DNA of 64,000 nt from an uncultured Desulfobacula sp. (GTDB lineage Bacteria > Desulfobacterota > Desulfobacteria > Desulfobacterales > Desulfobacteraceae). Positions 28,121 to 44,399 of the stretch are shown one piece after another. Location of the stretch: positions 19,718 through 83,717 of the forward strand of contig CAYFKW010000016.1 in the NCBI GenBank assembly GCA_964343845.1. Direction: 5' to 3'. The position numbers were made by a program, and so were the translations under genes. Position 1 is the stretch's first letter. Every line of letters starts with the position of its first letter. The notes below the pieces were generated by a model. That model searched no databases. It saw nothing but the letters and a program-made list of their open reading frames with translations, and had not been told where the DNA came from.

Positions 28121-28135
28121 TTATTCAAGTCCTTA

Positions 28136-29680
28136 TTATAAAACCATTTTGTACTCAGGTGCCGGTTGGTATTTCTTTTTTTCTTCCTCATCCAGATAGT
28201 CAAGGTGAACCAGAAGATCTGAACGGCCGCGAAGCTCTTTAATACTTTTTAAACCATAGGTTCTTAAAATATCGCACCACTGTTTCCGCCAGGCCATATA
28301 CATATTGACCAGGCGCTGCTCAACATATTCTTCATCGGTCATATATCCGAGTTCCGGGTCTGTGGATGCGATACCACGTGCACAGCCGCGCCCGCTTTCA
28401 CAATTCCCGCATCTGACACATTCAACTGCAACAAGATCAGCAGTTCCGATGACACATCCATCAGCACCAAGCGCAATGGCTTTTGCAACATCGAGTCCGT
28501 TTCGGATTCCTCCGCTGGCAATCAAGGTAACCTTGTCTCTGGCGCCTTCTTCAACGAGAAATCTGTGGACTTTTGGAATAGCATATTCAATTGGCATTGC
28601 AATATTCTTTTTGGCGATATCAGGCGCAGCCCCTGTTCCGCCGTAACTGCCGTCTATATGAATAATATGGGCACCCGCGTAATAGGCACCAACTGCTACC
28701 ATGTCCACATCTGTCGGCGTAGACACTTTTATGGAGCATAATACATTGTTATTGATCTCTTTCATCCAGTCTACATGTTTTTTATGATCTTCAACTGAGT
28801 AAACAGAGTGGAATGGAAAGGGAGAAAAAAGAGAGGCGCCTACAACTGTTTCTCTCATTTTGGCAACGGCTTCAGTTACTTTTTCTCCTAAGAGATGTCC
28901 GCCCAATCCTGGCTTTGCCCCCTGGGCATATTTAAATTCCATGATGGGGCAGTGTTGTATTGTTTCCTCCCTGACGCCAAACAGTCCTGTTGCCACCTGT
29001 GTAATCACATGCTCTTTGTAGGGTAGGAATTCAGGCGGGTACCCACCTTCTCCTGTACAGGTGAGAGAATTAAGTCTTTTGGCTGCTCTTGCTCTGCCGA
29101 CAATGATAGATAACGCTGTAGACCCGTAAGACATACCGCCCCCATAACAGGGAATGGAAATGGTTTTTTCAGGTCTGCCGTCTCCTGTCTTGTTCAGTTC
29201 AATGCTGGTATCAATGTCTTCATCACTAATATCTATGGCAGTGCTGGGATCCGGTTCAATAAATCGCATTTTATCAAACCCGCCGCCAGAGTTGCCTAAA
29301 TTATACTCAAGATCTACATGGGGCAGCTCTCCGGTCTCTGCCATGGCAAAATGACCCAACAGCATATCTGGTGTCCACCGGTAATCTCCCATGGTGTCCA
29401 ATAAAGGGTTTTCTTTTAACACCATGGCATCTTCAGGGCAGTGTTCAATACAATAGTGATCGGTTTTTTTACAGTCAGGCCCCACGCAGTTGTGTTCAAC
29501 CGGTCGAAAGGGCGATTTATGATTGTCCGGCATGATGTGAACACCATGAGGGCAGAGCTCTGCACACTTACCGCAAGAAACGCATTTAGCATTTCTTTTG
29601 ACAATATATTTGCCGATGGTGTTTCGAAACCGTGAAGGTGTTTTTTTGATTTCAGGCAGTTTTATTTCTGAATTACTCAT
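28136..29680 (-). CDS. Glutamate synthase FMN-binding subunit (GltB2 type) with N-terminal ferredoxin
   Basis: CVSCGKCAELCP...CIEHCP; GGGMSYGS, TGEGG, QVATGLFGV, EFKYAQGAKPGLGGHL, SGGIR, ALGADG, CVRCGNC...C. Confidence 0.92.
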   Translation of the reverse strand: MSNSEIKLPEIKKTPSRFRNTIGKYIVKRNAKCVSCGKCAELCPHGVHIMPDNHKSPFRPVEHNCVGPDCKKTDHYCIEHCPEDAMVLKENPLLDTMGDYRWTPDMLLGHFAMAETGELPHVDLEYNLGNSGGGFDKMRFIEPDPSTAIDISDEDIDTSIELNKTGDGRPEKTISIPCYGGGMSYGSTALSIIVGRARAAKRLNSLTCTGEGGYPPEFLPYKEHVITQVATGLFGVREETIQHCPIMEFKYAQGAKPGLGGHLLGEKVTEAVAKMRETVVGASLFSPFPFHSVYSVEDHKKHVDWMKEINNNVLCSIKVSTPTDVDMVAVGAYYAGAHIIHIDGSYGGTGAAPDIAKKNIAMPIEYAIPKVHRFLVEEGARDKVTLIASGGIRNGLDVAKAIALGADGCVIGTADLVAVECVRCGNCESGRGCARGIASTDPELGYMTDEEYVEQRLVNMYMAWRKQWCDILRTYGLKSIKELRGRSDLLVHLDYLDEEEKKKYQPAPEYKMVL

Positions 29681-29683
29681 AAT

Positions 29684-31102
29684 TTATCCTACATCTATAG
29701 ATACTTTGCGTTCACCGAAAATTGGTGCAAAACTTTCTTTTTCAAGGTCTTCAAACCACATGGATCGTCCAACTTCTCCCCTTAACCGTCTGGCTTCCCT
29801 CAACCCCATGGCACCAAGCATTTCAAGCATTTGATTCCGCCAGGCACCCATAAGGTTTATGATCCGATTGCTGCCATATTCAGAATCAATAGATTCCATT
29901 TCAACGGGACAGGAAAGATCCATTTCACATCGGCCGCACAACCGGCATTCCATGGCAATAAGAAGCGGCAGGTCAATTGAAACGCCGTCAGCACCACAGA
30001 TAATGGATTTGTTGACATGTTCCGCCAAACAGATACCGCCTGAGGCAAGGATATTAATCTGCTGTCGGGTTGCTGCATCGATTAGTGCCAGGTGGATATC
30101 CCGCAGCATATCCTTGATAAACCTCGGGTTGTCAGATTCAAGTTCTCTTCCCTGGCTGTCCGCGTAAACGTGGAGGGTATCAATCTCTTCTTTTGAAAGG
30201 TCGACACAAATTTGTGCATAATCAAGATCTGCTTTTAACTCAAGTCCAACACTGATCACCAGGTTTTCATTCATAGCCTTAAGCTGTTTGAAACAGGTTT
30301 CAATGCCGGGCTCATATTCAATCTCAACCATGTCAACGATGGACAGAAGTTTTGGATAATTTCCAAAGTTCTCTTTTTTTACCATTGGAACGATAGATTT
30401 TGAAAAAGACATCATGTCTTCATAAACATCTGCTGCCTTTACAAACATCTTTGTCCCAATAGCCTGGGCAGCAGTTAACATCGAAGCAAGAACGGATTTG
30501 CTGAAAACACCAAAATTGGGTTGTTGAAACAGAATTGGAAGCGGGATTTCAAGTATGGGTTTAACATCTACAGCAAGTGAACCGTCTGAATTAAACGATA
30601 ATCTTTCAGGCCTTCTTGAAAGCTCTATGCAGGTATTGATGTATTCCCGGCCATGGATACCGTCCCGTGTGGGGCGAACAATTTCTGACATGTCTGTCCA
30701 CATGGAATCAAATCCCTTTCCCACAAAACGGCCTCGATACCCTGCGCCGGAAACAGGGATGCTTCCTGTATGCGCCTGGTACCAGGTTCGGTTGAGGACA
30801 TCAGGTGTCCAATAGTCATCTCCAATTTCTCTGTACTCCGGGTTGACCACTCTTGAAAAAATTCCTTTGGTACATTCCTGGATACATCTAAAGCACGAAT
30901 TACACGTATACAAATATTCGGGCTCCTCCATTTTGCTCATGTGAAGATAGTTGTCTTTGAAGATGTCATATACACATTTTTTCTTTACACACTCTTTACA
31001 GCTGCCGGCACAGTTTTCCCTGAATTCTATGGTTGAGTATTTCCCAACAGGGTAAAACCGTGGTGGTGCTGCCTTTGTGTGAATATGATATTTTTGAGGC
31101 AT
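29684..31102 (-). CDS. Degenerate glutamate synthase FMN-domain paralog with N-terminal Fe-S motifs
   Basis: CAGSCKECVKKKC and CNSCFRCIQEC; GFDSMWTD, SGGICLAEHVNKSIICGADG, CRLCGRC, REARRLRG. The GGMS, TGEGG and QGAKPG motifs are absent. Confidence 0.82.
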   Translation of the reverse strand: MPQKYHIHTKAAPPRFYPVGKYSTIEFRENCAGSCKECVKKKCVYDIFKDNYLHMSKMEEPEYLYTCNSCFRCIQECTKGIFSRVVNPEYREIGDDYWTPDVLNRTWYQAHTGSIPVSGAGYRGRFVGKGFDSMWTDMSEIVRPTRDGIHGREYINTCIELSRRPERLSFNSDGSLAVDVKPILEIPLPILFQQPNFGVFSKSVLASMLTAAQAIGTKMFVKAADVYEDMMSFSKSIVPMVKKENFGNYPKLLSIVDMVEIEYEPGIETCFKQLKAMNENLVISVGLELKADLDYAQICVDLSKEEIDTLHVYADSQGRELESDNPRFIKDMLRDIHLALIDAATRQQINILASGGICLAEHVNKSIICGADGVSIDLPLLIAMECRLCGRCEMDLSCPVEMESIDSEYGSNRIINLMGAWRNQMLEMLGAMGLREARRLRGEVGRSMWFEDLEKESFAPIFGERKVSIDVG

Positions 31103-31122
31103 ACGTACTTATCCTTAAATCT

Positions 31123-32031
31123 TTATTTTAGTCCAGCCTGTTCAACGATGCCGGCTACGGCGTCTTCCCACTCGATGGCCATAATATGAACCCCATGAAC
31201 CCCTTTAAGTTCTTTAAGTTCCTGTATGGTTTCAAGACAGATTTTAATGCCTTCACCTGCCTGATCCTTTTTATCAACACCGTCCATCCTTTGAATAATC
31301 TCTTCAGGCACATCCATGCCAGCCACTTTGCTGTTCATGTATTTTGCCATGCCGGCAGACCGAAGTGGTGTAACGCCACCTAAAATAAATACTTTTTCAG
31401 TTAACCCTTCTTCATTGGCCTGTCTGATCCACTCTTTAAACCTTGCCATGTTGTAAATACACTGGGTCTGGATGAAATCAACGCCGGCATCAATTTTTTT
31501 AGCAAGTCTGATAACTCTATATTCAAAAGGATCCGCAAAAGGGTTGGCTGCTGCACCAATAAACATCTGCGGGGCAACATCGAGATCAAATCCACTCATG
31601 TCTTTGCCTGTATCCCGCATATCACGAACCGTTCTAATCAGGTTTACAGAATCAATATCAAAAACATTCATGGCATCCGGCTGGCTGCCAAAATTTTGAT
31701 GATCCCCGGACAGGCATAGTATATTACGGATACCTAAAGAATAAGCACCCATAATATCGGATTGGATGGCAATGCGGTTCCTGTCCCTTACGACCATCTG
31801 CATCACAGGTTCTAAACCAGCCGAAACCAGATGGGCAGACGCAGCAATACTTGACATTCTTACGATAGCTGTCTGGTTATCGGTGACATTGACAGCATCA
31901 ACATGCCCATTTAATAATTTAATTTTTTTTTCAATGACCTCTTTATTTGCGCCCCTTGGAGGGCCGCATTCACCTGTTACTGCAAATTCGTTGTTAAGTA
32001 ATTTTTCGTGGAGTTTACTGATGGCATTCAT
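31123..32031 (-). CDS. metF: Methylenetetrahydrofolate reductase, FMN/FAD subunit
   Basis: ECGPPRG, VNVTDNQTA, CLSGDH, AKKIDAGVDFIQTQ, GVHIMA. Confidence 0.93.
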   Translation of the reverse strand: MNAISKLHEKLLNNEFAVTGECGPPRGANKEVIEKKIKLLNGHVDAVNVTDNQTAIVRMSSIAASAHLVSAGLEPVMQMVVRDRNRIAIQSDIMGAYSLGIRNILCLSGDHQNFGSQPDAMNVFDIDSVNLIRTVRDMRDTGKDMSGFDLDVAPQMFIGAAANPFADPFEYRVIRLAKKIDAGVDFIQTQCIYNMARFKEWIRQANEEGLTEKVFILGGVTPLRSAGMAKYMNSKVAGMDVPEEIIQRMDGVDKKDQAGEGIKICLETIQELKELKGVHGVHIMAIEWEDAVAGIVEQAGLK

Positions 32032-32696
32032 ATGATGTGGTCCTCCCTGATCAATTTTCTAGGTCCACCGGAAAGACTGGTATTCCAGTTTTTTGGAGGG
32101 ATATAGGTTTTTAAATTATCCATCTGGCCTAACGTACGAAGACGTTCAATTATCATGTGCCATGCACACTCTGTATTCGGGTCAATTTCGCAAAGCCCTT
32201 CCTGGGAACCGCCGCAGGGACCGTTTAAGAGTTTTTTGGAGCATCGGGTCACAGGGCAGACACCGCCAAAAGTTGCCAACTCACAGTTTCCGCACCCGGA
32301 ACATTCTTCAGTAAAAATACCGTGGCTCTCCTGTATGCCGATAAATGTGGTGTTTACACCAGGCAATACCACTTCTTTTTCAAATCGCTTGGCCATTGCC
32401 TGTACACCTGCACCGCAGGCAAGAGACAAAATAGCATCATTTCTTGCAATCGATTCCGCTGCTTCCTGAATAAATTCATTTTCGCATTGACGTTCGATGG
32501 TAAATTCTTCAATTTCAATGGGTCTTGCCATTTTGTTAAAACTCAGTCTCAGGGCAGATGCTAAAACAGCAACTTCGTCTTCACCGCCGGCAAAGCATGT
32601 TTTTACACAAGTGCCGCAGCCAAGAATCAAGACCTTTTTATAAGGTTCAACAAGTTCAATAATTTCGTTAATGGGTTTTTGACTACCGGTTATCAT
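32028..32696 (-). CDS. metV: MetV (MTHFR-associated Zn/Fe-S subunit)
   Basis: GCGTCVKTC, RQCE, ACGAGVQ, CSGCGNC...CPVTRCSKKLLNGPCGG...C...C; overlaps metF by 4 nt. Confidence 0.88.
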   Translation of the reverse strand: MITGSQKPINEIIELVEPYKKVLILGCGTCVKTCFAGGEDEVAVLASALRLSFNKMARPIEIEEFTIERQCENEFIQEAAESIARNDAILSLACGAGVQAMAKRFEKEVVLPGVNTTFIGIQESHGIFTEECSGCGNCELATFGGVCPVTRCSKKLLNGPCGGSQEGLCEIDPNTECAWHMIIERLRTLGQMDNLKTYIPPKNWNTSLSGGPRKLIREDHII

Positions 32697-32764
32697 TCTT
32701 TAACTCCGTTTTTTGGAAATATTTAAGAAAAGACCAGATTAAAGTAAGGTACGTTGCCATTATC

Positions 32765-32808
32765 TTTGATTTCATTGATTAGGGGAGTGATCAAACAATG
32801 AAATCAAA
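32765..32808. other. 13-bp perfect inverted repeat between mvhD and metV
   Basis: TTTGATTTCATTG (32765-32777) / CAATGAAATCAAA (32796-32808). Confidence 0.6.
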
Positions 32809-32866
32809 AATTAAACAATACCTCACTTTAAACCTGGCTTTTATAATAACATCAATAGGGATGGTA

Positions 32867-33271
32867 TTAATTAAAATGATTTAAAGCAGGATTCGGACCG
32901 ATCGTTTCAAGCGATGCTATTGTGTCCTGAATAATATCTTTAATCGACCCGCTGTCTTTCGCAGTTGTATTGAAAATGTTCAACCGCCCGCTGTCCATTC
33001 CAATGTCATCAAGGATAGTTTTTACATAATCAACCCGTTTCTTTGCCCGGATACTGCCTTCAGCATATCTGCAGCCCTTATTGGGACAAACAAGAACGAT
33101 GACAGCATCTGCACCCGCTTCAAAAGCTCTGAGCAGATGGACATCTTTTGTCATGGAGGAACAAGCCATTTTAACAGTTTTTGCTTCACAACCGTCAAAC
33201 ATCGAGGCTGTCTCTTCAAACGAGTTTAAACAATGAAACAGCGTAAGTTTTGGTGTTTTGTTAATGTTCAT
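32867..33271 (-). CDS. mvhD: MvhD-like [2Fe-2S] protein (methyl-viologen hydrogenase delta subunit family)
   Basis: Four Cys in MvhD spacing (FHC, MACSS, LVC, GCRY) and the motif AFEAGADAV...RAKKRV...IGMDSGRL; ATG 33271 preferred over TTG 33283. Confidence 0.85.
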   Translation of the reverse strand: MNINKTPKLTLFHCLNSFEETASMFDGCEAKTVKMACSSMTKDVHLLRAFEAGADAVIVLVCPNKGCRYAEGSIRAKKRVDYVKTILDDIGMDSGRLNIFNTTAKDSGSIKDIIQDTIASLETIGPNPALNHFN

Positions 33272-33291
33272 TTTTTTCCCCAAAATTAAAT

Positions 33292-33334
33292 AAAAAAAGG
33301 CATTCGCCCAGGTTAATATTGGGAAAACGCCTTT
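33292..33334 (-). terminator. Leader intrinsic terminator (attenuator) upstream of mvhD
   Basis: Minus strand reads AAAGGCGTTTTCCCA-ATATTAACC-TGGGCGAATGCCTTT-TTTT; its 5' arm is the loop and 3' arm of ANTAR hairpin P2. Confidence 0.85.
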
Positions 33335-33368
33335 GTTTTCTTTAATTTTGCTAATACGCCGTTGTATT
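33323..33368 (-). promoter_or_regulatory. ANTAR-binding dual-hexaloop RNA motif
   Basis: Minus strand: P1 AATAC-AACGGC-GTATT (33368-33353), 12-nt linker, P2 GAAAAC-AAAGGC-GTTTTC (33340-33323). Both loops have A at position 1 and G at position 4. Confidence 0.85.
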
Positions 33369-33381
33369 TAGCTGGATTCTC

Positions 33382-33410
33382 AGCTTAGTGGCAACGGTTA
33401 AAAATGTCAA
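33382..33410 (-). promoter_or_regulatory. sigma70-type promoter of the mvhD-metV-metF-glt operon
   Basis: TTGACA (33410-33405), 17-nt spacer, TAAGCT (33387-33382); P1 starts about 14 nt downstream. Confidence 0.75.
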
Positions 33411-33586: not shown

Positions 33587-33746
33587 AAAGAATTTATATT
33601 CAGTTGAAGCCTTTAGTGTTGATTTCTGCTAAGATACGAATTATTTAAGCAACGGAACCCTGTGATATGAAATTGTCATTAAACGCTGTTTTAATCCTGT
33701 AATGGATACAATTGACTTTGATGCTGACAATTGACGTTTGAGAAAT

Positions 33747-34457
33747 ATGGACAAACAACCTGATACTCAAAAAAAAATCACCAATCGAGACCTGATTTTA
33801 CCATATGGACTTCCCTATTTTGCCTATGTGGGGATTGCCTCCCTGGGACAGGACAGGCTCCCTGTTGGAATAAATTACAGTTTAAAATTGATTATCGTTC
33901 CTCTATTATTATGGTGGGCGTGGAAATGGTATGTTCCCATAAAAGGGCCCAGGAAACCAATGGGCTCGGTTATTTTAGGTATTCTTTTCGGTCTTACAGG
34001 ACTTGTGCTCTGGTGTTTGTTGCTGGCACCATTTATAGATATCAGAGGAGAACCATGGGAATTATCCGGCTTTCTGCTGAGAATGGCTGCAGCGTCTTTA
34101 ATTGTGCCAGTGTTCGAAGAATTTTTTATCAGGGGCTATATTTTCAGGGCTGCCTATCAATGGGACAATAACCGGAAGAACAATGGTTTATCCGCGTTGA
34201 ATGAGACATTAGACAGGAACTGCATAAACAGTGTCAAACCCGGTGCCTGGAGCATCATGGCAATCGTGGTCTCAACCATTGCATTTACTGCAGGTCACCT
34301 GCCTGTTGAGTATCTGGCTGCCGCTGCCTACAGTATTTTGATATCGGTTTTGTGGATTATCCGCAAGGACCTTCTGTCATGCATGGTTGCCCATGGTGTG
34401 ACAAACCTGACACTGGGAATCTATGTATACTATTCCGGCCATTGGGGTTTCTGGTAG
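33747..34457 (+). CDS. CAAX prenyl protease-related (CPBP/Abi) intramembrane protease
   Basis: VPVFEEFFIRGY, FTAGH, AHGVTNL. Confidence 0.88.
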   Translation: MDKQPDTQKKITNRDLILPYGLPYFAYVGIASLGQDRLPVGINYSLKLIIVPLLLWWAWKWYVPIKGPRKPMGSVILGILFGLTGLVLWCLLLAPFIDIRGEPWELSGFLLRMAAASLIVPVFEEFFIRGYIFRAAYQWDNNRKNNGLSALNETLDRNCINSVKPGAWSIMAIVVSTIAFTAGHLPVEYLAAAAYSILISVLWIIRKDLLSCMVAHGVTNLTLGIYVYYSGHWGFW

Positions 34458-34492
34458 GAACAGACCGTTTAAAAAGGTATGGTTTTAATAAC

Positions 34493-35512
34493 TTAAGATT
34501 TTAAAGCAATACATCGTTTTAATAAGTCAACTGCCTCTTCGCTGTCTTTTTCTTCTGTTAAGTCGAAAACCGATATTTTTGTATCGTCGATCAACACATT
34601 AGGGTTGCTTAATATTAAGTCGATCTGATTTTTAGAAAAGTATTTAGATAATTGTCTGCCGAATGTGAAATCTAAGGGTGCTTTTATTTTTGAAGGCTGT
34701 GAAAAATCTGAGTTATATCTTATGAGTTCCACCAACCCTTCTACAGGACCGGCTGACAGGTGGACACCATTCATTCCCTGTGAAACTTCTGCCAACCCAA
34801 GATCATCCATATTGTCTAGGAACAATTTTCTTAAACTGCCTTCTTCTGCAGTCACCGGATTTGTGGAACCGATAAAATTATTTCGAGCGTTTGACCAGTT
34901 CATGTCACCTGTCAAATTGAATACGATAATGGACCTTCCCGGATTTGTAAAATGCACTAACTGCCTTGGATGAAATCCGTTCACCAGATATACCAGTTTA
35001 TCATCCAGTTTTATTTTTTCGCAGTATGCGCCGCCTGCCAGTTTAATGTTTTTTGAATTCTGCCATAAAAAATCAAGTGATTCTGCATTGAAACATTTAT
35101 ACGTTTCTAAAAATTCAAAACCGCCCAATATCCGGCTTTCTGAAAATTTAACCCCAAACCGGGCTTCAAATTCAGTTTGGGCTGCGTCTGAAATGTTTTC
35201 AGAAGCGCTGCAGGCATTTTTATTTATTACACCGTAATGATTTGCAATGATATCATATTCTTTCAGGTATTCAGCAGAAAGGACTCTCACTGATTGTATT
35301 TTCAGTTCATATTTATCGATTTGTTTAAAAATAAGATCTACAATCTCCTGTATGTTTATTGCGTCATTTGCCAGGGTGATTTCCGGTTTAACAAAAAACA
35401 AAAATTCATTTTTACAGGCTGAAGTAGTTTCAGCCTCATAGATATGAGAATTCGTGATCTTTGAGTTCTGCGCTTTTTTTACTGTATCAAGGATTTGAGA
35501 TTTTAGTTCCAT
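34493..35512 (-). CDS. Atypical long nucleoside-diphosphate-kinase-fold protein
   Basis: FFVKPE, IGSTNPVTAEEGSLR and NGVHLS parallel the NDK motifs IKP, GATNP...PGTIR and NxxHGS, in a 339-aa protein. Confidence 0.65.
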   Translation of the reverse strand: MELKSQILDTVKKAQNSKITNSHIYEAETTSACKNEFLFFVKPEITLANDAINIQEIVDLIFKQIDKYELKIQSVRVLSAEYLKEYDIIANHYGVINKNACSASENISDAAQTEFEARFGVKFSESRILGGFEFLETYKCFNAESLDFLWQNSKNIKLAGGAYCEKIKLDDKLVYLVNGFHPRQLVHFTNPGRSIIVFNLTGDMNWSNARNNFIGSTNPVTAEEGSLRKLFLDNMDDLGLAEVSQGMNGVHLSAGPVEGLVELIRYNSDFSQPSKIKAPLDFTFGRQLSKYFSKNQIDLILSNPNVLIDDTKISVFDLTEEKDSEEAVDLLKRCIALKS

Positions 35513-35668
35513 TCTTTAAGCCCTCTGTTAAAAAATACATAACACCACTTTCCAGCTCCCTGCCAAGATCCTATAACATAAAAAAAAAGTAATATTAAAT
35601 TAATTTTTATTTAATATGACATCATAAATAAAAAACATTCAATCTGTATGGAGTGTGAATGCTTTTTT

Positions 35669-38191
35669 TTAATTGGTCTTGTCCTTTGAATTCGACAAAA
35701 CTTTCCTGACAGCAGCGGCTAATTGTTTACGATTGAGCGGCTTTTCGACATATTTCCGTATTCCCATTTCATGTGAGGCACCACTGTCAATTTTATGGCT
35801 GAAGCCTGTACACAAAATAACAGGCATATCAGGATTAATTTCTAGTATCTTTTTTGTTAATTGATCTCCTGTCAAACCCGGCATGGTCATATCCGTAATA
35901 ACAAGGTCAAATTTATCGGGTTCATTTTTTATCAGATCCAGTGCATGAATAGAACTGGTATGGTAAACGACATCATACCCCATACGTTTAAGCATTTCTG
36001 CTCCCATTTTTGCCAAAGCTTCTTCATCGTCTATAAATAGTATTTTTTCACTGCCTGCAAGATTAATATCAGGTGATTTTTCTTCTTTAAAGGACGCTTC
36101 ATCAGCTGAAGGAAATAGTATCTTGAAGGTGGTACCCTTCAATGGCTCACTGTAAACATTAATTGAGCCATTATAACTTTTAACGATACCGTGGACTACA
36201 GCAAGTCCCATTCCGGATCCTTTACCCACTTCTTTTGTGGTGAAATACGGGTCAAAGATTTTATCAATAATTGAATCTTCAATGCCGGTACCCGTATCTG
36301 TGATCGTTAACTGAACATATTTTCCCGGTCCAATATCCTGGAATTCAAGCGGTGTCGGGTCGTCCAGTTCGATTTCAGATAAATGTATTGTCAGCGTGCC
36401 GCCGTCTTCATCCATGGCGTGTGCCGCATTTGTACACAAATTGATTAGAATCTGGTGTATCTGCGTTGGATCTGCATTGATGATTCCCTGTATATCCCCG
36501 GCATTCATTTTAATGTCGATGGTTGCTGGAATGGATGACCGGACGAGCTTTATAGATTCTTTAATGATGGGAAGTATACGGATATTTTTTTTGGTTTGTT
36601 CTGATTTTCTGCTAAAGCTTAACAGCTGGTTGACGATATCTTTAGCCCGCATACCAGCGGTCTTAATTTCCTGAAGATTATTGTATGCAGGGCTCCACTG
36701 TGGGATATCGTCAATTGCCAATTCAGTGTTCCCAATGATAATCCCGAGGATATTGTTGAAGTCATGTGCGATACCGCCGGAAATTGTACCAATAGATTCC
36801 ATTTTATGCGCCTGACGAAGTTCTTCTTCCATGCGTTTTAATTCGGTAATATCAGATGCAATTTGAAGCTTTACGATCCGGCCGTCAGTCCACTCAATCG
36901 CCCGGTCATAATTGATATACCATTTTTTTGTTTTTGGATTTTGAGTCTGCCAGACATGAACACCTTTTGGATTGCCATCTTTATCAACAAGCTTGGCATT
37001 TGGACAATGGGCGCATTGACTGGATTGTCCTCTATATGCATCCCAGCAGATTTCACCTGTCATGTCCCTGCCAAAGCTGTCGATCATATATTGATTCATG
37101 AAAAGAATTTTATGGGTCTGCATATCAACCACGTAGACAGTTGCATCAATACTGTTTAAAACAGTAAAAAATCTTTTATGGGAATCCTGTAACGCTTTTT
37201 CCGAATGTTTAAGTTCTGTGATATCGGTTACAATGCCTTCAATCGCAACCAGCCTGCCCTTGTCATCCCAGACACCGACGTTCCGCTGGTGAATCCACCT
37301 TGTTTCATTTCCTTTATAAAGGATCTGGTATTCGTAGCTGGGATCGAGTTCTCCTTTTAACAGCAGCGCCCATTTTTCTTTGAAATAACCATGATAATTG
37401 GGATGGATGATTTCCTGGATCAGGATCGGATTTTGATACCAGGTTTCAGGCGGAAAACCAAATATGGTGTCTGATGCCGGGCTCACATATTCATATTTCC
37501 CGTCTGGCAGCGACATCCGGTAGATCATATCCTTTGCATTTTCCGTGAACCTGCGGTACTTTTCTTCATTGTTTTTCAGTTCATTTCGCGTCTTTTGAAA
37601 ATAGATCATCAACATGCCCAGGGCCACAGTAAATTCAAGCATTGCCCCTAAAAGATATCCCCATGGCGCCAACCATTCAACAGGTCTTAAAAATGGATAG
37701 TCTGCTTTGTGGAGACCCCAGAGAATAAAAGCGCTGCCGACAATGGTGCGCTCTTTTTTTTCATGTCTGCCTGATTTGAGGAATAATATACCGGTCGAAA
37801 TGTAGATAAGGGCTAAAAATGAAAAAGTGGGCAGAGAGATATAAAGGAATGGAAAATTGTGCAGGATACTGATAACAATCCACCCAATGTTGATACCACA
37901 AAGATACAGCCACACTTTTGGAAATTTTTTATCAATATAACAATAGGTTCCCCATAGAAGTATGATGCCGCTTACAAGGGTGGCAACCTGATTCCCGATC
38001 AGAAAAACATGGCTTTTATATCCTTTAATTAAAAACAGCATAAAGATGAATCTGGAGATGTAGACAGTCCAGCTTATCGTCCAGATTCCGAGATACTTTT
38101 TACGATCCAGCAGGTATAGATAAAAATATGTGGACGATAAAAGGATCGTCCCGATCATTGTCGCTATAACTGATGGAAACAGCCAAGACAT
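35669..38191 (-). CDS. Membrane-bound PAS-PAS hybrid histidine kinase/response regulator
   Basis: About seven N-terminal TM segments, two PAS domains, SGGIAHDFNNIL, NLCTNAAHAM, DTGTG, GSGMGL and REC (FIDDE, VITDMTMP, KP). Confidence 0.93.
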   Translation of the reverse strand: MSWLFPSVIATMIGTILLSSTYFYLYLLDRKKYLGIWTISWTVYISRFIFMLFLIKGYKSHVFLIGNQVATLVSGIILLWGTYCYIDKKFPKVWLYLCGINIGWIVISILHNFPFLYISLPTFSFLALIYISTGILFLKSGRHEKKERTIVGSAFILWGLHKADYPFLRPVEWLAPWGYLLGAMLEFTVALGMLMIYFQKTRNELKNNEEKYRRFTENAKDMIYRMSLPDGKYEYVSPASDTIFGFPPETWYQNPILIQEIIHPNYHGYFKEKWALLLKGELDPSYEYQILYKGNETRWIHQRNVGVWDDKGRLVAIEGIVTDITELKHSEKALQDSHKRFFTVLNSIDATVYVVDMQTHKILFMNQYMIDSFGRDMTGEICWDAYRGQSSQCAHCPNAKLVDKDGNPKGVHVWQTQNPKTKKWYINYDRAIEWTDGRIVKLQIASDITELKRMEEELRQAHKMESIGTISGGIAHDFNNILGIIIGNTELAIDDIPQWSPAYNNLQEIKTAGMRAKDIVNQLLSFSRKSEQTKKNIRILPIIKESIKLVRSSIPATIDIKMNAGDIQGIINADPTQIHQILINLCTNAAHAMDEDGGTLTIHLSEIELDDPTPLEFQDIGPGKYVQLTITDTGTGIEDSIIDKIFDPYFTTKEVGKGSGMGLAVVHGIVKSYNGSINVYSEPLKGTTFKILFPSADEASFKEEKSPDINLAGSEKILFIDDEEALAKMGAEMLKRMGYDVVYHTSSIHALDLIKNEPDKFDLVITDMTMPGLTGDQLTKKILEINPDMPVILCTGFSHKIDSGASHEMGIRKYVEKPLNRKQLAAAVRKVLSNSKDKTN

Positions 38192-38400: not shown

Positions 38401-39126
38401 TTAAGGAGAATTTTTGGTAAAAATTTCATCAGACAGAATGACAGCCTCTGCAACTTCACGAATTGATTTTCTCGAATCCATGCTTTTTTTACGAATCCAG
38501 CCATAGGCATCATCACCTGTCATTTTATGCTGGTCCATTAAAATTTCTTTTGCCTGTTCTATCTTTTTCCGCGCCTCTAATTCTTCCTGGATCACCCTTG
38601 TTTTCACCATGAGCTCTGTGTTTACAATCGCCACAGCGCTTTGATTGGCAACCGCTCTGAGAAGATTGACTTCAGTTGGAGAAAAATCATGAGGGGAAGC
38701 TGTAAAACAGTTTAAGACACCAATGACTTTCTCTTCTTTGGTGATCAAAGGAATGCCCACCATGGAGACAAGTCCCAGCTTTTTTGCCATTTCTTTTTCT
38801 TTAAATCGATCTGATTCCAGGACATCGTCTAATATCAGGGGCTTTTTGTGGGTTACAACATAACCGACAACCCCTTCATCCAGATTAAGTGCCCGGTCTT
38901 TTATATAGTCCGGAGAAATGGACTGGGTCGCTTTAAGCCGGATCTTTGGTGGTTTCTCATCTTCATTAACAATCCATAAAGAGCAGATCTCCACCCCTGT
39001 AACCTTAGCGGTTACCATGACAATCAGTTTCAACAGGTCTTCAATAAACAGATCTGATGTGATTGCCTGGCTGATATCAGTTAATGCTTTAATATACCCG
39101 TCATATGTCTGTTCTGATTTTTTCAT
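38401..39126 (-). CDS. GAF-ANTAR one-component RNA antiterminator
   Basis: GAF domain (EGVVGYV, SMVGIPL, IGVLNCFT, QSAVAI) followed by ANTAR (LEARKKIEQAKEILM...DAYGWIRKKSMDSRKSIREVAEAV). Confidence 0.92.
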   Translation of the reverse strand: MKKSEQTYDGYIKALTDISQAITSDLFIEDLLKLIVMVTAKVTGVEICSLWIVNEDEKPPKIRLKATQSISPDYIKDRALNLDEGVVGYVVTHKKPLILDDVLESDRFKEKEMAKKLGLVSMVGIPLITKEEKVIGVLNCFTASPHDFSPTEVNLLRAVANQSAVAIVNTELMVKTRVIQEELEARKKIEQAKEILMDQHKMTGDDAYGWIRKKSMDSRKSIREVAEAVILSDEIFTKNSP

Positions 39127-39200
39127 AGTACTTATATACTAATCAGAAATGATAATTCATCGTCAATAGGAAAAGTTATTTCACTTAAAATTTTTAAACG

Positions 39201-41531
39201 CTAAAATGCGTTGTTTGGTATTAAATCCCAGATTCCACAAGGGCAGGCACCTTTGCAGAAACCACACCCAATGCACAGGTCCGCGTCTACTTTATATTCA
39301 AAAGCATTTTTTTTGATACTGATTCTTTCAATGGCACCTTCCGGGCAGATGGCAACACAGATGCCACAATCCCTGCATTTCCCACAGGAAGCACAGTTCG
39401 CACCACAGTCAGCCAGGTTGTCTGCCGTCATTTTAGGATCATAATACTCAAGACTGATCCGTTGTTTATCCACCTGAACCGGATGGTCAATTTTGTCCAG
39501 ATTTTTGCCTTCAATGATTTTATCAATACTTTGTGCGGCTCTTCTACCCGCACCAATGGCATCTGTAATCAAACCCGGGCCCACAACATCCCCGATTGCA
39601 AAAATATTTCGATCTGAGGTCCGGTTGAACTCATCTACTTTGACAAACCCATTTTCAATTTGAATCGTGTCGTCCAGAAAATCAAGATCAGGAACATCGC
39701 CAATCGAGAGCACGATGGTGTCTGCCTTTAACAATTGACCATCCTGGAGTAAAACGCCTTTTTTAGTGATTTCTTTTGTGAAACAGGGCCATTTGAATTT
39801 TGCACCAACTGCTTCGGCGTCTTCTTTTTCTTTTCCAAAAGCCAGCGGTTTTTGAATATCAATCATGGTGATATCCCTGGCGCCCAGACGGTGCGCTTCG
39901 GTTGCCACATCACAACCGACATTGCCCGCGCCGATGATTACCATTGCCTTGCCTGGTTTTACTTTTCCCTTTTTTGATTTTTCCAGAAAATCATTTGCAA
40001 AAGTTGCCTGTTCAATGCCTGGAATCGGCAGGGATCTTGGTTTTTTTGCGCCAGCGGCAATGATGGTAAAATCGTAATCAAGTATGATTTTTGAGAATTT
40101 TTTTTGAGTGATTTTCTGTTTTACTTTGATGTTCGGAATGAACGCCTTAACACGATTGAGTTCAGTTTCAAGTGTCTCTTTTGGTATCCGTGAACCCGGT
40201 ATGACAGACGCAATTTTCCCGCCAATCTGCGAGCCTGTTTCAAATAAAGTAGCATCATGCCCCATAAGAGTTAAATGCCAGGCAGAAGAGATACCACCAG
40301 GCCCTGAACCGATAACTGCAATTTTCTTTTTACTTTTTTTACCAGGTTTTGGCAGTTTTACTTTTTCACCTGCTTTGCCTAAAAGCCTGACATCAATGGG
40401 CGACATATAATTTAAATTCCGGGTACAGGATGCCATACATGGACTTGGGCAGAGATATCCACAAACAGTTGCAGGAAACGGTGAATATTCAAGCCCCATA
40501 GAAATGGCTTCATCAATATTGTCCAGGCGGACCATATTCCATCTTTCCTGAACAGGAATGCCTGTGGGACAAGCCGCCTGGCAGGGCGCAATATATCTTC
40601 CCTGTTCCCAAACAGGGATGTATCGTCTCAGGTCTCCTCTGGTGATCACTGGAATGGTGCCCCTCTGTGTTTCCTGAAGGTCACCTATCAGACCGCCTGG
40701 CCCAAGCTCCCTGTCCCACACATCCGCTCTGAATTTTGCCATACTCATTCTTTCGGGCGCTTCTGTTTTCTCCTGGGGAGATTTTGCTTCAAGCAGCTGC
40801 CATTGAGTACGGTTTGAAAATGATGTCAGCAACTTGTCTTTTTTAATTTTGGCCAGAAAAATTTTAAGGCCTTTTTGAAGCCAGTTCCATTCCTCGTCTG
40901 TGAGTAAACTGAGTTTGGCATCCTTTTGGGAGAATTCATCAACACTGCCGTGAACAAAAATTTTACCACCCACCATCCCAATAAGGGGCCGATACCCGAG
41001 GATTTCGTCCCTGGGATCAATATTGTGACCGCAGATAACAGCGATGCCGCCCGCCATAAACTCACCAAAGTAATCTCCAGCAGATCCCAGCACCCAGAGT
41101 TCCGGCGGATCAAATCTTGGGTTCCTTTTTGTCATGGTCATGCCCCTGGCACCGATGGAACCTGCAATATACACTTTGCCCTGGGCCGCGCCATTCATTA
41201 CACCGTTGGAGGCGTTGCCATGAACGATAATCTCAGCACCTGCATTCAGCCATCCAACGTCATCTGATGCTGGTCCCATGATTTCGATCAAGGTATTTGC
41301 ACTCCCGAGAGATCCTGTTCTCTGCCCGGACTGGCCCGTGATTCTTATATGGGTGTTTTCTGAACCAGCATCCCAAAGACGTCCCCCGATACCGTGTTGG
41401 CCAAAGCCTTGTATTTCAATGTTTCTACGACCGTTTTTAATATGATGATGAATCATTTCTTCCAGGACGCGGGAAGGTATTCTTTTCCCATCCTTTTTTC
41501 CGGGCAGTTTTATAAATGCATCTTTTTTCAT
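39201..41531 (-). CDS. Glutamate synthase GXGXG domain fused to GltD-like NAD(P)H/FAD oxidoreductase and ferredoxin
   Basis: GQHGIGGR, GSAGDYFGEFMAGG; CQAACP, CGYLCPSPC; GSGPGG, GAGNVGCD, AIGDV; CASCGKCRDCGIC and CIGCGFCKGACP. Confidence 0.9.
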   Translation of the reverse strand: MKKDAFIKLPGKKDGKRIPSRVLEEMIHHHIKNGRRNIEIQGFGQHGIGGRLWDAGSENTHIRITGQSGQRTGSLGSANTLIEIMGPASDDVGWLNAGAEIIVHGNASNGVMNGAAQGKVYIAGSIGARGMTMTKRNPRFDPPELWVLGSAGDYFGEFMAGGIAVICGHNIDPRDEILGYRPLIGMVGGKIFVHGSVDEFSQKDAKLSLLTDEEWNWLQKGLKIFLAKIKKDKLLTSFSNRTQWQLLEAKSPQEKTEAPERMSMAKFRADVWDRELGPGGLIGDLQETQRGTIPVITRGDLRRYIPVWEQGRYIAPCQAACPTGIPVQERWNMVRLDNIDEAISMGLEYSPFPATVCGYLCPSPCMASCTRNLNYMSPIDVRLLGKAGEKVKLPKPGKKSKKKIAVIGSGPGGISSAWHLTLMGHDATLFETGSQIGGKIASVIPGSRIPKETLETELNRVKAFIPNIKVKQKITQKKFSKIILDYDFTIIAAGAKKPRSLPIPGIEQATFANDFLEKSKKGKVKPGKAMVIIGAGNVGCDVATEAHRLGARDITMIDIQKPLAFGKEKEDAEAVGAKFKWPCFTKEITKKGVLLQDGQLLKADTIVLSIGDVPDLDFLDDTIQIENGFVKVDEFNRTSDRNIFAIGDVVGPGLITDAIGAGRRAAQSIDKIIEGKNLDKIDHPVQVDKQRISLEYYDPKMTADNLADCGANCASCGKCRDCGICVAICPEGAIERISIKKNAFEYKVDADLCIGCGFCKGACPCGIWDLIPNNAF

Positions 41532-41544
41532 TCTTATACCTCAT

Positions 41545-43179
41545 TTAAACCACATATTTTATGCTGAGTCGTTCAGCGGCAGCAGGATCATCGATTCCAA
41601 GCGCGTCAGACATCCCAATTGGAAGGGATGTTGAACGGCCGAGCGGGGCGACTATTTTTTTAAGTTCAGTATCAAAGGAAAGATAAAGATCAACAATTCT
41701 CTGGGCAACATCTTCAGGGTCCAGTCGCCTGTACAGTCTTGGGTCCTGAGAGGTAATCCCTTTTGGACAGATGCCGACATTGCAGACATTGCAGCGGTCT
41801 TCTTCTGTTCCAACACAACCTGCAGCAGCCTGCATTGCATATTTTCCAATCTGGATCCCACTTGCACCCAGCATGATCAAAGCGGCTGCATTGGCAGCAA
41901 GATTGCCATTTTTACCAATACCCCCGCCGGCAAAAATCGGAATTTCATTTTGTTTGCCTATTTTTATCAGGTTTAAATAATTATCCCTGATGCAGGAGGC
42001 AATCGGGTGACCCATGTGGTCCATGGAAACAGTATAGGCAGCGCCCGTTCCGCCATCTTCCCCGTCAATGGCAAGGGCAGATGCGTAATCATTCCGGGTT
42101 AAATTATTCAACACAGCCAGTGAAGTAGAAGATGCGGATATTTTTGGATACACCGGTACCCTGAACCCCCATGCCATGGACATGGACAAAATCATTTTTG
42201 CCACTGACTCTTCGATTGAGTATTGGGTCTGGTGCGTTGGGGGACTGGGCAGACTGATGCCTTGAGGAACCCCACGGATGGCAGCGATAAGTTTATTGAC
42301 TTTGTGCCACATCAAAAGGCCGCCGTCTCCTGGTTTCGCCCCCTGACCATATTTGATTTCAATGGCGCAGGGATCTTCTTTCATGTGTGGAATCGCATGA
42401 ATAATCTCATCCCAGCCAAAATATCCGGATGCGATTTGCAGGATAACATATTTTAAAAACCTGGATTTCAGCAGCCGGGGCGGGCAGCCGCCTTCTCCTG
42501 TTGACATCCTGACCGGCATTCCCAACGTTTCATTTAAATAGGCAACCCCCATTTGAAGCCCTTCCCACATACTGGGAGACAAAGCACCAAAGGACATACC
42601 CCCTATGATTAAAGGATAGATTTCTCTAACAGGCGGAATCCACCCTTTTTCTTTCAATTGCTTCATGTTTTCTTTTGGAGAAAGAACTCTGCCCAGTAAT
42701 GTTCTCATTTCAAACTCATGGCGGCCGGCATCAAGTGCTGGATCTGTCAGCATGGAAATCCGGGTAAACTTGATTCTATCTAAAATTGAGCCGGAGACAT
42801 TTCTTCTGCCGCCGCGCCGCCTTGGGATACCCTGTTGATTGATATGAAATTTGAGACGATCCAAACCTGGATTTTTCACCGGTGTTATGGCATCATTGGG
42901 GCACACCATAGTGCACATGGCACAGCCGATACAGGCGTTTTCAACTTGCGTTTTCTGTTGTATCCCATAAAAAGTTCCATATTGGTTGGAATGGTCTGTC
43001 TCTTTATTTACAGAGGTTTTAATCTTCCTCTTTTGAAAAACAGACAGATCAATGGCCTTAACCGGGCACACAGCAGTGCACTGGCCGCACAATGTGCACC
43101 GGTCATTGCTGTAACGAATCTGCCAGGGCAGATCATTTAAGCTTAAAGCGGAAGGTTCAAGGCTTCTGTTTGACGACAT
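41545..43179 (-). CDS. Glutamate synthase FMN-binding subunit with N-terminal 2x[4Fe-4S]
   Basis: CTLCGQCTAVCP, CIGCAMCTMVCP, GGMSFGALS, STGEGG, QIASG, EIKYGQGAKPGDGG, C...CNVCNVGICP. Confidence 0.92.
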   Translation of the reverse strand: MSSNRSLEPSALSLNDLPWQIRYSNDRCTLCGQCTAVCPVKAIDLSVFQKRKIKTSVNKETDHSNQYGTFYGIQQKTQVENACIGCAMCTMVCPNDAITPVKNPGLDRLKFHINQQGIPRRRGGRRNVSGSILDRIKFTRISMLTDPALDAGRHEFEMRTLLGRVLSPKENMKQLKEKGWIPPVREIYPLIIGGMSFGALSPSMWEGLQMGVAYLNETLGMPVRMSTGEGGCPPRLLKSRFLKYVILQIASGYFGWDEIIHAIPHMKEDPCAIEIKYGQGAKPGDGGLLMWHKVNKLIAAIRGVPQGISLPSPPTHQTQYSIEESVAKMILSMSMAWGFRVPVYPKISASSTSLAVLNNLTRNDYASALAIDGEDGGTGAAYTVSMDHMGHPIASCIRDNYLNLIKIGKQNEIPIFAGGGIGKNGNLAANAAALIMLGASGIQIGKYAMQAAAGCVGTEEDRCNVCNVGICPKGITSQDPRLYRRLDPEDVAQRIVDLYLSFDTELKKIVAPLGRSTSLPIGMSDALGIDDPAAAERLSIKYVV

Positions 43180-44273
43180 ATTTTTACCTCCTGGCGGTCA
43201 GAGCCGACGATTGCTGTATCAATGTGCATGGGTTGAATATCTTTTGTCTTATCTCGATCCGGAATAATCGCATCAAGACCACACACTTCAGATGAAAATC
43301 CAAAAAATCCCGGTTTCCCGCCCACAATCCCCGGCCGAAGTTTTTTTCTATCCTGTACCATGAATAGAGAACGATCCGGCAGCGTACCGATAATACAATT
43401 GGGGCCATCAATAATCAGGGGCCTGCAGGTCTGCTTGAGATGTGATAAAAATTCTGCATTCGGGTGTTTTTGGAGATCGTCTTTCTGCAATGGTGTGATG
43501 ACATGTTTATAGGCATCGATTCCCAATTCAAGGCCCACCATTGAATAATGGAGAATATGTGCAAAGACTTCAGAGTCAGATTGATATCCCATATACCCGG
43601 GAAAATCTCTTGATAATAAAAAGTCTTTGATAGGGGTGAAGGCTGTATTTTCCCCATTGGTCATGGTGCAGTATCCCCTGATAAAGAATGGGTGGCAGGC
43701 ATACAGGTTAATAGCGTAATTTGTATTTTGGCGGCCTTGGGCCATAATAATTCTGGCATTCAGTTCTTTTCGGTCCAGTCCAAGGTATTCAGCCAGCTGC
43801 ATCGGATCGCCAATCTCTTTGATCATAATGGTATCCGGCCAGAAAGAGAACACGATCATATCATTTTTTTCTTCACCCATTTCTCTTATCTTTAATCGAA
43901 TATGCATCAGCCGTTTAGAAATTTCGTCCTGCGCCAGCGTATCCCAATCCTCTGGCAGCTCGTAGGCTCTTATCAAGTAAAGATCACGTTTTGGAATACC
44001 CTCAACAGGTTTTTTGGGTATTTTTAATGAAATTTTATACTTGGTGAGAAATCCCTGATCCATCATAAAAAGATCGAGGCGTCGTATCCCTTCCTCACTG
44101 AAGATTCCTGAAAGAATCGGTGCATCTTTCATCTCTTCAAACGGGCCGCCCAGGTCCTGGAGCAGAAGCCCCACGCCTGAACCGTCATGCCCTTCTTTCA
44201 TGACGTCAAGGGCTTTTATGGCCAGCATTGGAGATACAGGATCTTCACTGGTAAGCGCAAACAGACGACACAT
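43143..44273 (-). CDS. Glutamate synthase amidotransferase subunit (class II GATase)
   Basis: N-terminal MCRLF (catalytic Cys2), GHDGSG, GRQNT, CHPF, NGEN, SDSE, DGP, LRPG; AAGGAG RBS. Confidence 0.92.
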   Translation of the reverse strand: MCRLFALTSEDPVSPMLAIKALDVMKEGHDGSGVGLLLQDLGGPFEEMKDAPILSGIFSEEGIRRLDLFMMDQGFLTKYKISLKIPKKPVEGIPKRDLYLIRAYELPEDWDTLAQDEISKRLMHIRLKIREMGEEKNDMIVFSFWPDTIMIKEIGDPMQLAEYLGLDRKELNARIIMAQGRQNTNYAINLYACHPFFIRGYCTMTNGENTAFTPIKDFLLSRDFPGYMGYQSDSEVFAHILHYSMVGLELGIDAYKHVITPLQKDDLQKHPNAEFLSHLKQTCRPLIIDGPNCIIGTLPDRSLFMVQDRKKLRPGIVGGKPGFFGFSSEVCGLDAIIPDRDKTKDIQPMHIDTAIVGSDRQEVKICRQTEALNLPL

Positions 44274-44399
44274 TATAAGTTCTCCTTGTTTTAAAAATAT
44301 TACAGCATTCTGCTTGATTGTTTTTTTAGGAAAAGCGTTTCAAAGATAAACTTTCCAAATTTTAGCCTAAGTAAGATAATGATGGTTGTCAATCATTTT

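Follow-up and report, generated by a model that had tools for sequence, protein, structure and literature searches.

Known systems and the Desulfobacula locus

The ANTAR protein EutV of Enterococcus faecalis and its eutP, eutG, eutS and eutA leaders (PMC3369931, PMC8934654; PDB 6WSH/6WW6) are among the closest described counterparts of the system reported here, which consists of a GAF-ANTAR protein and a set of candidate RNA targets in an uncultured Desulfobacula sp. The regulator gene lies in a 64,000-nucleotide stretch of the genome (the window, G000:C16:19718-83717), whose closest named loci are those of Desulfobacula. It stands between a three-gene glutamate synthase (GOGAT), called cluster B, and a MetF-linked GOGAT 5 kb away, called cluster A. 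As in the EutV system, dual hexaloop hairpins (P1 and P2) carry A at loop position 1 and G at position 4, P2 lies inside a terminator, and RNA contacts including the equivalents of Tyr164 and Met172 are kept. In contrast to EutV, a GAF domain replaces the phosphorylated receiver, no kinase partner is evident, and the predicted targets encode glutamate-forming enzymes spread over three contigs.

ANTAR sites have been predicted before different glutamate synthase genes of Desulfotomaculum reducens (Ramesh et al. 2012, PMC3369931). The ANTAR nitrogen regulons of D. reducens and D. acetoxidans (PMC3369931) resemble the present case in that ANTAR RNAs precede different glutamate synthases in one sulfate reducer; however, the regulators listed there are response regulators and their targets include glnA, amt and PII, whereas here there is one GAF-ANTAR protein, and those genes have no site. 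NasR of Klebsiella (NIT-ANTAR, PDB 4AKK) is a one-component, ligand-sensing antiterminator for nitrogen genes, as the Desulfobacula protein is predicted to be, but it has another sensor fold and its ligand is known. The study that defined the ANTAR RNA motif described GAF-ANTAR proteins as uncharacterised (PMC3369931); the literature searched contained no later work on them.

On the enzyme side, GltBD (PDB 1EA0/2VDC, 7MFM) and the split archaeal-type GltB1/B2/B3 have in common with cluster B an amidotransferase, a flavin mononucleotide (FMN) barrel, a GXGXG domain and a GltD-like reductase. Cluster B differs in its three chains, its GXGXG-GltD fusion, two extra 2x[4Fe-4S] modules and a motif of the type associated with reduced nicotinamide adenine dinucleotide (NADH); moreover, no central domain was detected, and its proteins score far below the NCBIfam cut-offs for GltB and GltD.

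We consider it quite likely that a single GAF-ANTAR protein controls cluster A, a gene for an FMN-only GltB-like protein and, probably, gdhA, with cluster B as a separate, unattenuated GOGAT. The apparent novelty is a three-site regulon that serves one regulator at a distance and is limited to glutamate-forming genes, with a gdhA site that has no clear terminator and an adjacent GOGAT that would fall outside the regulon. Antitermination as a mechanism is known and is widespread in the class, as is the split cluster B-type enzyme; neither is therefore surprising.

The regulator and its predicted RNA targets

The regulator (38401-39126, minus strand, as are all features of the window described below unless stated) is a predicted one-component RNA-binding protein of 241 aa, with a GAF domain at residues 28-167 and an ANTAR domain at residues 179-230. 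Domains were assigned by Pfam and NCBIfam profile searches, and the ANTAR domain matched PF03861 with 70.9 bits (cut-off 27.3), the sole match to this family in an assembly that is 96.5% complete. Seven of the 11 RNA contacts of EutV are identical, R186, K187, K193, Y208, R212, M216 and R219 being equivalent to R142, K143, K149, Y164, R168, M172 and R175. The predicted structure consists of the GAF domain, a helix 50 residues long and the ANTAR bundle (predicted local distance difference test score, 82).

Cluster A is preceded by a sigma70-like promoter (TTGACA-17-TAAGCT, 33382-33410) and a leader in which P1 (loop AACGGC) and P2 (loop AAAGGC) occupy 33323-33368. An intrinsic terminator that uses the P2 loop and 3' arm (33292-33334; -17.3 kcal/mol, z -4.3) overlaps this pair and leads into a U run. 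The complete element, 33368-33292, has the classic form of a dual-hexaloop antiterminator, with stems of at least 3 bp, six-base loops, and A1 and G4 in both. Across 45 such leaders, 94% of the stem cells are paired and 87 two-sided changes were counted, a level reached in 0 of 500 shuffles. A covariance model built from these leaders and then run genome-wide returned exactly two strong sites, at 61 bits before cluster A and 58 bits on contig C2, with the next best at 17.9 bits. The second site (C2:94266-94319) lies ahead of the FMN-only GltB-like gene, and its terminator also overlaps P2, so that in both leaders terminator and P2 are mutually exclusive. These two terminator leaders are very probably targets of the regulator, as judged from the RNA motifs and the uniqueness of the protein.

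The FMN-only protein (552 aa, G000:C2:92511-94319; L001:8509-10320, minus strand) has no amidotransferase partner nearby, no match in NCBIfam or the PDB, and no solved relative. The literature searched contained no biochemical study of its family; if it is glutamate-forming, it would need free ammonia. Directly upstream of the C2 leader are genes for cysteate racemase and D-cysteate sulfo-lyase (cuyB and cuyA, both above their NCBIfam cut-offs; L001:10531-12269). A regulator-type gene with KaiC-like, helix-turn-helix and cupin domains adjoins the FMN-only gene (L001:7153-8451), and similar genes occur near the FMN-only gene or the regulator in other genomes (L168, L169 and L170).

A third candidate emerged when 3,848 upstream regions were screened strictly for C-AAnGnn-G hairpins in pairs; the AA condition of this screen had been set after the first leaders had been seen. 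Three regions passed (cluster A, C2 and gdhA), against 0-2 in shuffles; this count alone is modest, and its weight lies in the fact that all three precede glutamate-forming genes. Relaxed screens without the C-G closing pair gave background levels, which leaves the strict version as the informative one. The upstream screen found no ANTAR site at glnA, glnK, amt, nifH, the second glutamate dehydrogenase (GDH) gene or other metVF loci, and amt and glnK carry sigma54 motifs.

The gdhA site (C1:370283; gdhA, G000:C1:370180-371632, L002:4180-5633) comprises a dual hexaloop and a third hairpin. The element is present in six members of the genus, all with the regulator, and in none of eight genomes without it. 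Its P1 stem covaries, and in the P2 loop A1 and G4 are constant whereas positions 3, 5 and 6 vary. From these features gdhA is a probable target, to which we give a somewhat better than even chance. Mycobacterial ANTAR RNAs act by translational repression (bioRxiv 10.1101/660928) and are a precedent for sites without a terminator. The Desulfobacula gdhA hairpins end approximately 50 nt before the start codon and leave the ribosome site uncovered, unlike the gdhA leader of G040 (L161), where the last of three hexaloop hairpins covers the Shine-Dalgarno sequence and could allow repression. In another genome (G038, L155), regulator, leader and terminator lie directly ahead of gdhA.

The ligand of the GAF domain

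The GAF domain of PtsP binds glutamine or 2-oxoglutarate. The NifA protein from Azotobacter vinelandii has a GAF domain that binds 2-oxoglutarate (PMC8219145). By both profile and fold, the GAF domains nearest to that of the regulator are those of PtsP (EI-Ntr; PDB 3CI6, 3TRC), with NifA and cyclic-nucleotide GAFs close behind. Identity to PtsP and NifA is about 25%, and the pocket lid differs, as the RFxY segment of PtsP is replaced by an invariant FKEKEMA. On this homology, the chances are about even that the ligand is 2-oxoglutarate or glutamine.

Alternatively, the domain may respond to redox state, to a cyclic nucleotide or to another protein as partner, or may only dimerise, so that the switch would follow electron-donor supply and not nitrogen status. 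The predicted targets do differ mainly in their electron input (MvhD/MetVF-linked, no reductase, and NADP-GDH), amt, glnK, glnA and nifH have no ANTAR sites, GAFs that bind cyclic AMP or cyclic GMP are among the top structural matches, and the RFxY segment of PtsP is replaced. We nevertheless regard a signal other than a nitrogen or carbon metabolite as rather unlikely, since the best sequence and structure matches include the PtsP and NifA domains, all targets are expected to consume 2-oxoglutarate, and ANTAR regulons are mostly nitrogen-related (PMC3369931).

The enzymes of clusters A and B

Cluster B begins with a gene for a class II glutamine amidotransferase subunit of the GltB1 type (43143-44273, 376 aa, Cys2 nucleophile). 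Searches of Pfam and NCBIfam gave no family match for this protein; it is assigned by the N-terminal Cys2 and by the Arg, Asn-Gly and Asp motifs GRQNT, TNGENT and SDSE, which are invariant among the 26-27 homologues compared, and its Atlas neighbours are GATase_2/GltB1 clusters. The next gene (41545-43179, 544 aa), which overlaps the first by 37 nt, encodes a synthase subunit of the GltB2 type with an N-terminal 2x[4Fe-4S] module followed by the Glu_synthase FMN barrel (PF01645, 199 bits). Aligned to GltB, this subunit retains GEGG, QGAKPG, a Cys cluster that presumably ligates a [3Fe-4S] centre, and the Lys and Arg that we take to bind 2-oxoglutarate. The third gene (39201-41531, 776 aa) encodes a fusion of a GXGXG domain (GltB3; PF01493, 50.8 bits) with a GltD-like reductase for flavin adenine dinucleotide and NAD(P)H (Fer4_20 and Pyr_redox_2) and a C-terminal 2x[4Fe-4S] module.

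The nearest structures to the reductase domain are NfnA, Nfn and GltD. Where NfnA/Nfn have YRR, the motif for NADPH, the alignment shows IDI following GAGNVG, and the Asp at this strand end is present in all homologues compared; by the usual Rossmann-fold rule, the reductant is probably NADH. A canonical two-chain NADPH-GltBD, with one GltB of ~1,500 aa and a GltD that carries YRR, was ruled out by this replacement and by a score of 103.7 against 1047 bits for NF008730. In the GltD part (residues ~313-370) the usual N-terminal cluster motif is without its first CxxC, and the C-terminal ferredoxin (residues ~705-770) has an additional CxxC ahead of it; the protein possibly has a permuted Fe-S cluster. 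Given the retained Arg of IPxxR and the extra ferredoxins, electron bifurcation is conceivable.

An earlier note on this DNA, made from the sequence alone, had described four genes with a 74-nt gap before the last, and the open reading frames agree (44273-43143, 43179-41545, 41531-39201 and 39126-38401). Its statement that GXGXG is joined to GltD in cluster B and to the amidotransferase in cluster A also holds, with the correction that the ferredoxin precedes the FMN barrel. The NAD(P)H dependence that it proposed can be narrowed to probable use of NADH.

Putative split glutamate synthases are also encoded by Desulfovibrio vulgaris DVU3290-3292 and DVU1821-1823. These genes are only listed within a predicted sigma54 nitrogen regulon (PMC4641369). 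The literature searched contained no biochemical study of a three-subunit enzyme of the cluster B type.

Cluster A (25526-33283) is a predicted target operon of mvhD, metV, metF, a degenerate FMN subunit, a ferredoxin-FMN subunit and a fusion of the amidotransferase with GXGXG (654-804); it has no GltD, and its FMN subunit is just 28% identical to that of cluster B. The second FMN-barrel paralogue (window:29684-31102) lacks the GAKPG motif and is probably a non-catalytic electron-transfer subunit. This composition, together with the one-carbon genes of cluster A and the lack of a nearby amidotransferase partner and of a solved relative for the FMN-only protein, allows another reading, in which cluster A and the FMN-only protein are related amine or one-carbon enzymes (e.g. 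N-methylglutamate synthase-like, which fits metVF) and cluster B is the sole GOGAT. However, cluster A still has the Cys of the amidotransferase, its match to GltB is stronger than that of cluster B (E 3e-50 vs 5e-25), gdhA shares the hexaloop motif, and four well-assembled members of the genus without cluster B have cluster A and/or the FMN-only gene, although most of these also have a GDH. We consider such a division of roles unlikely.

Control of cluster B and position of the regulator

A sigma70-like promoter (TTGACA-17-TAGGCT, 44364-44392) is found 119 nt before the start of cluster B. It is too weak for a generic promoter scan, which was itself not above shuffles; the pattern TTGACA-16/17-TAnnCT recurs upstream of cluster B in nine related loci. 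No sigma54 motif was found upstream. Upstream of 44273 the covariance model scores 6.5 bits at best (E=5), compared with 61 bits at the 33374-33321 leader, and no ANTAR leader was matched at the corresponding position in 18 related loci. Folding, pattern and an unfiltered model search found no ANTAR leader before cluster B or inside the 74-nt gap. At its 5' end, the leader of cluster B contains a GGAAAG...CTTTTCC hairpin (window:44325-44357) that is conserved in Desulfobacula and is not of the ANTAR type. The neighbouring GOGAT thus appears to lie outside the ANTAR regulon in this Desulfobacula sp., as an unattenuated default enzyme with presumably constitutive expression. This role would not be fixed to the enzyme: four members of the genus (92-99% complete) gave no cluster B match but carry cluster A, the FMN-only gene or both. 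Other families supply three genomes (G060, G104 and G107) in which an ANTAR leader lies directly ahead of cluster B.

The regulator follows cluster B on the same strand after 74 nt (39200-39127). Within this gap, a promoter-like element (TTGACG, long spacer, TAGTAT; 39136-39166) ends 9 nt before the ATG. The start has no Shine-Dalgarno sequence, and the transcript is possibly leaderless if the conserved element acts as a promoter. The element is present in 23 of 31 close loci and is kept in 10 of the 15 that have no cluster B upstream. Folding revealed no strong terminator to separate the regulator from cluster B, and read-through from the latter may therefore occur.

In a class sample of 121 well-assembled genomes (75 with the regulator and 46 without), the leader was found in 45 of 75 against 1 of 46, a co-occurrence whose P value is too strong because kin in the sample are not independent and the leader pattern was trained on regulator-adjacent loci. 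Cluster B is present in 90 of the 121 genomes, comprising 54 with the regulator and 36 without. The leader thus seems to track the regulator, which cluster B does not. All five well-assembled genus genomes without the regulator have cluster B and lack cluster A and the leaders. When 80 neighbourhoods of the regulator were compared for gene order, 35 had the FMN-only gene downstream at a distance of up to 1 kb, in most cases behind a leader of this type, and cluster B preceded in 16, all close kin at >=83% identity; the distant genome G140 also has the cluster B-regulator order. The regulator is mostly not part of cluster B, and its position there mostly reflects lineage history; the conserved promoter-like element and the independent distribution argue that it is not simply the last cluster B gene.

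The region between the regulator and cluster A (33738-38191, no single strand assigned) holds unrelated inserted genes for a hybrid histidine kinase, a protein resembling nucleoside diphosphate kinase and an Rce1-like protease. In D. toluolica Tol2, cluster B, regulator, leader and cluster A are contiguous without these genes, and the sole detected leader precedes cluster A; GCA_900105645 has only Rce1 of the three. Because the gene order grades from none to one to three inserted genes, the 5-kb distance is best read as a recent, later insertion and the link to cluster A as real. The kinase-like protein (339 aa, window:34493-35512) has only a weak match to nucleoside diphosphate kinase.

A circuit dedicated to two GOGATs, with the regulator at the end of a housekeeping operon and the MetF-linked system as all that it licenses, is favoured by the shared strand, the short gap without a strong terminator, which makes co-transcription likely, and the contiguous order with a single detected leader in D. 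toluolica, but we regard it as highly improbable given the equally strong leader on C2, the probable third site at gdhA, the persistence of the promoter-like element without cluster B, the independent presence of the two, and the FMN-only gene as the usual neighbour. The earlier note had proposed this circuit, against which the additional predicted targets speak. Its placement of a hairpin pair at 33368-33323 is exact, no such pair precedes 44273, as it had stated, and the co-occurrence of leader and GAF-ANTAR that it suggested as a check was found in the class sample. The housekeeping label fits cluster B within Desulfobacula and fails beyond, in view of the members without the cluster and the leaders before it in other families. 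Licensing of the MetF-linked system stands in part, with the regulator as the only candidate binder and Tol2 contiguity in its favour, and with cluster A as one of two firm targets, beside a third, probable one. The note's suggestion of glutamine or 2-oxoglutarate as the ligand is a reasonable guess from GAF homology at about 25% identity.

Proposed mechanism

Several observations count against control of three sites by one protein. The assembly is incomplete, and two relatives carry a second GAF-ANTAR paralogue. Two fragmented genomes (G001 and G019, in 430 and 660 contigs) have the regulator and cluster B, and searches for cluster A, the FMN-only gene and a leader found none of these in them, while G107 has leaders and no close regulator match. 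The gdhA site scores a weak 12.4 bits with the covariance model, and folding did not support a gdhA terminator overlapping P2, as the minimum-energy fold keeps P1, P2 and the third hairpin together and the U run is weak or offset. The sensor shares only about 25% identity with GAF domains of characterised ligand, and the scores of cyclic-nucleotide GAFs are almost as good. The second paralogue, with 47% identity, lies near a GDH paralogue (G014:C1:4740697-4744030; G004:C421:51630-55308).

Under the favoured scheme of one regulator with three sites, cluster B would be read from its plain sigma70-like promoter without attenuation, as the default enzyme in Desulfobacula. Glutamine would be hydrolysed at Cys2 of the 376-aa subunit, and ammonia would move to 2-oxoglutarate at the FMN barrel, with electrons, probably NADH-derived, from the fused GltD-like flavin domain via the Fe-S chain. 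Hexaloop binding by the ANTAR dimer would be set by a metabolite on the GAF domain; a carbon/nitrogen signal, for instance 2-oxoglutarate or glutamine, is the most likely one. Binding would block the overlapping terminators before cluster A, 5 kb away, and before the FMN-only gene on contig C2, and the gdhA leader of contig C1 would probably be acted on as well. All glutamate-forming routes except cluster B would then belong to the regulon, which would be separate from the ammonium-scavenging genes amt and glnK with their sigma54 motifs.

A more specific version is tentative and, in our estimate, doubtful. Here the GAF-ANTAR protein would read the 2-oxoglutarate/glutamate balance, and would act by antitermination on the FMN-only enzyme and the MetF-linked GOGAT, whereas its effect at gdhA would be independent of a terminator, on translation or RNA stability and possibly of opposite sign.

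Neighbouring features

Just downstream of cluster A, window:21568-24647 contains a hemerythrin gene and then a fusion of cyclic nucleotide-binding, Ser/Thr kinase and PP2C phosphatase domains. The gene at window:50240-51541 encodes a fusion of a Ser/Thr kinase with an Lcl C-terminal domain.

Implications

Ligand and mechanism are both directly testable, as the system has a single regulator and three named candidate RNAs, and D. toluolica Tol2 is a relative in culture. The findings also point to two enzyme types of predicted function, the MvhD-MetVF-linked GOGAT and the FMN-only protein. If the dual-action version is true, the system would select at the RNA level among four routes to glutamate that differ in their electron donors, and would do so independently of the sigma54 regulon for ammonium scavenging. 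Work on this regulon would reveal how the choice among routes to glutamate is made in sulfate reducers.

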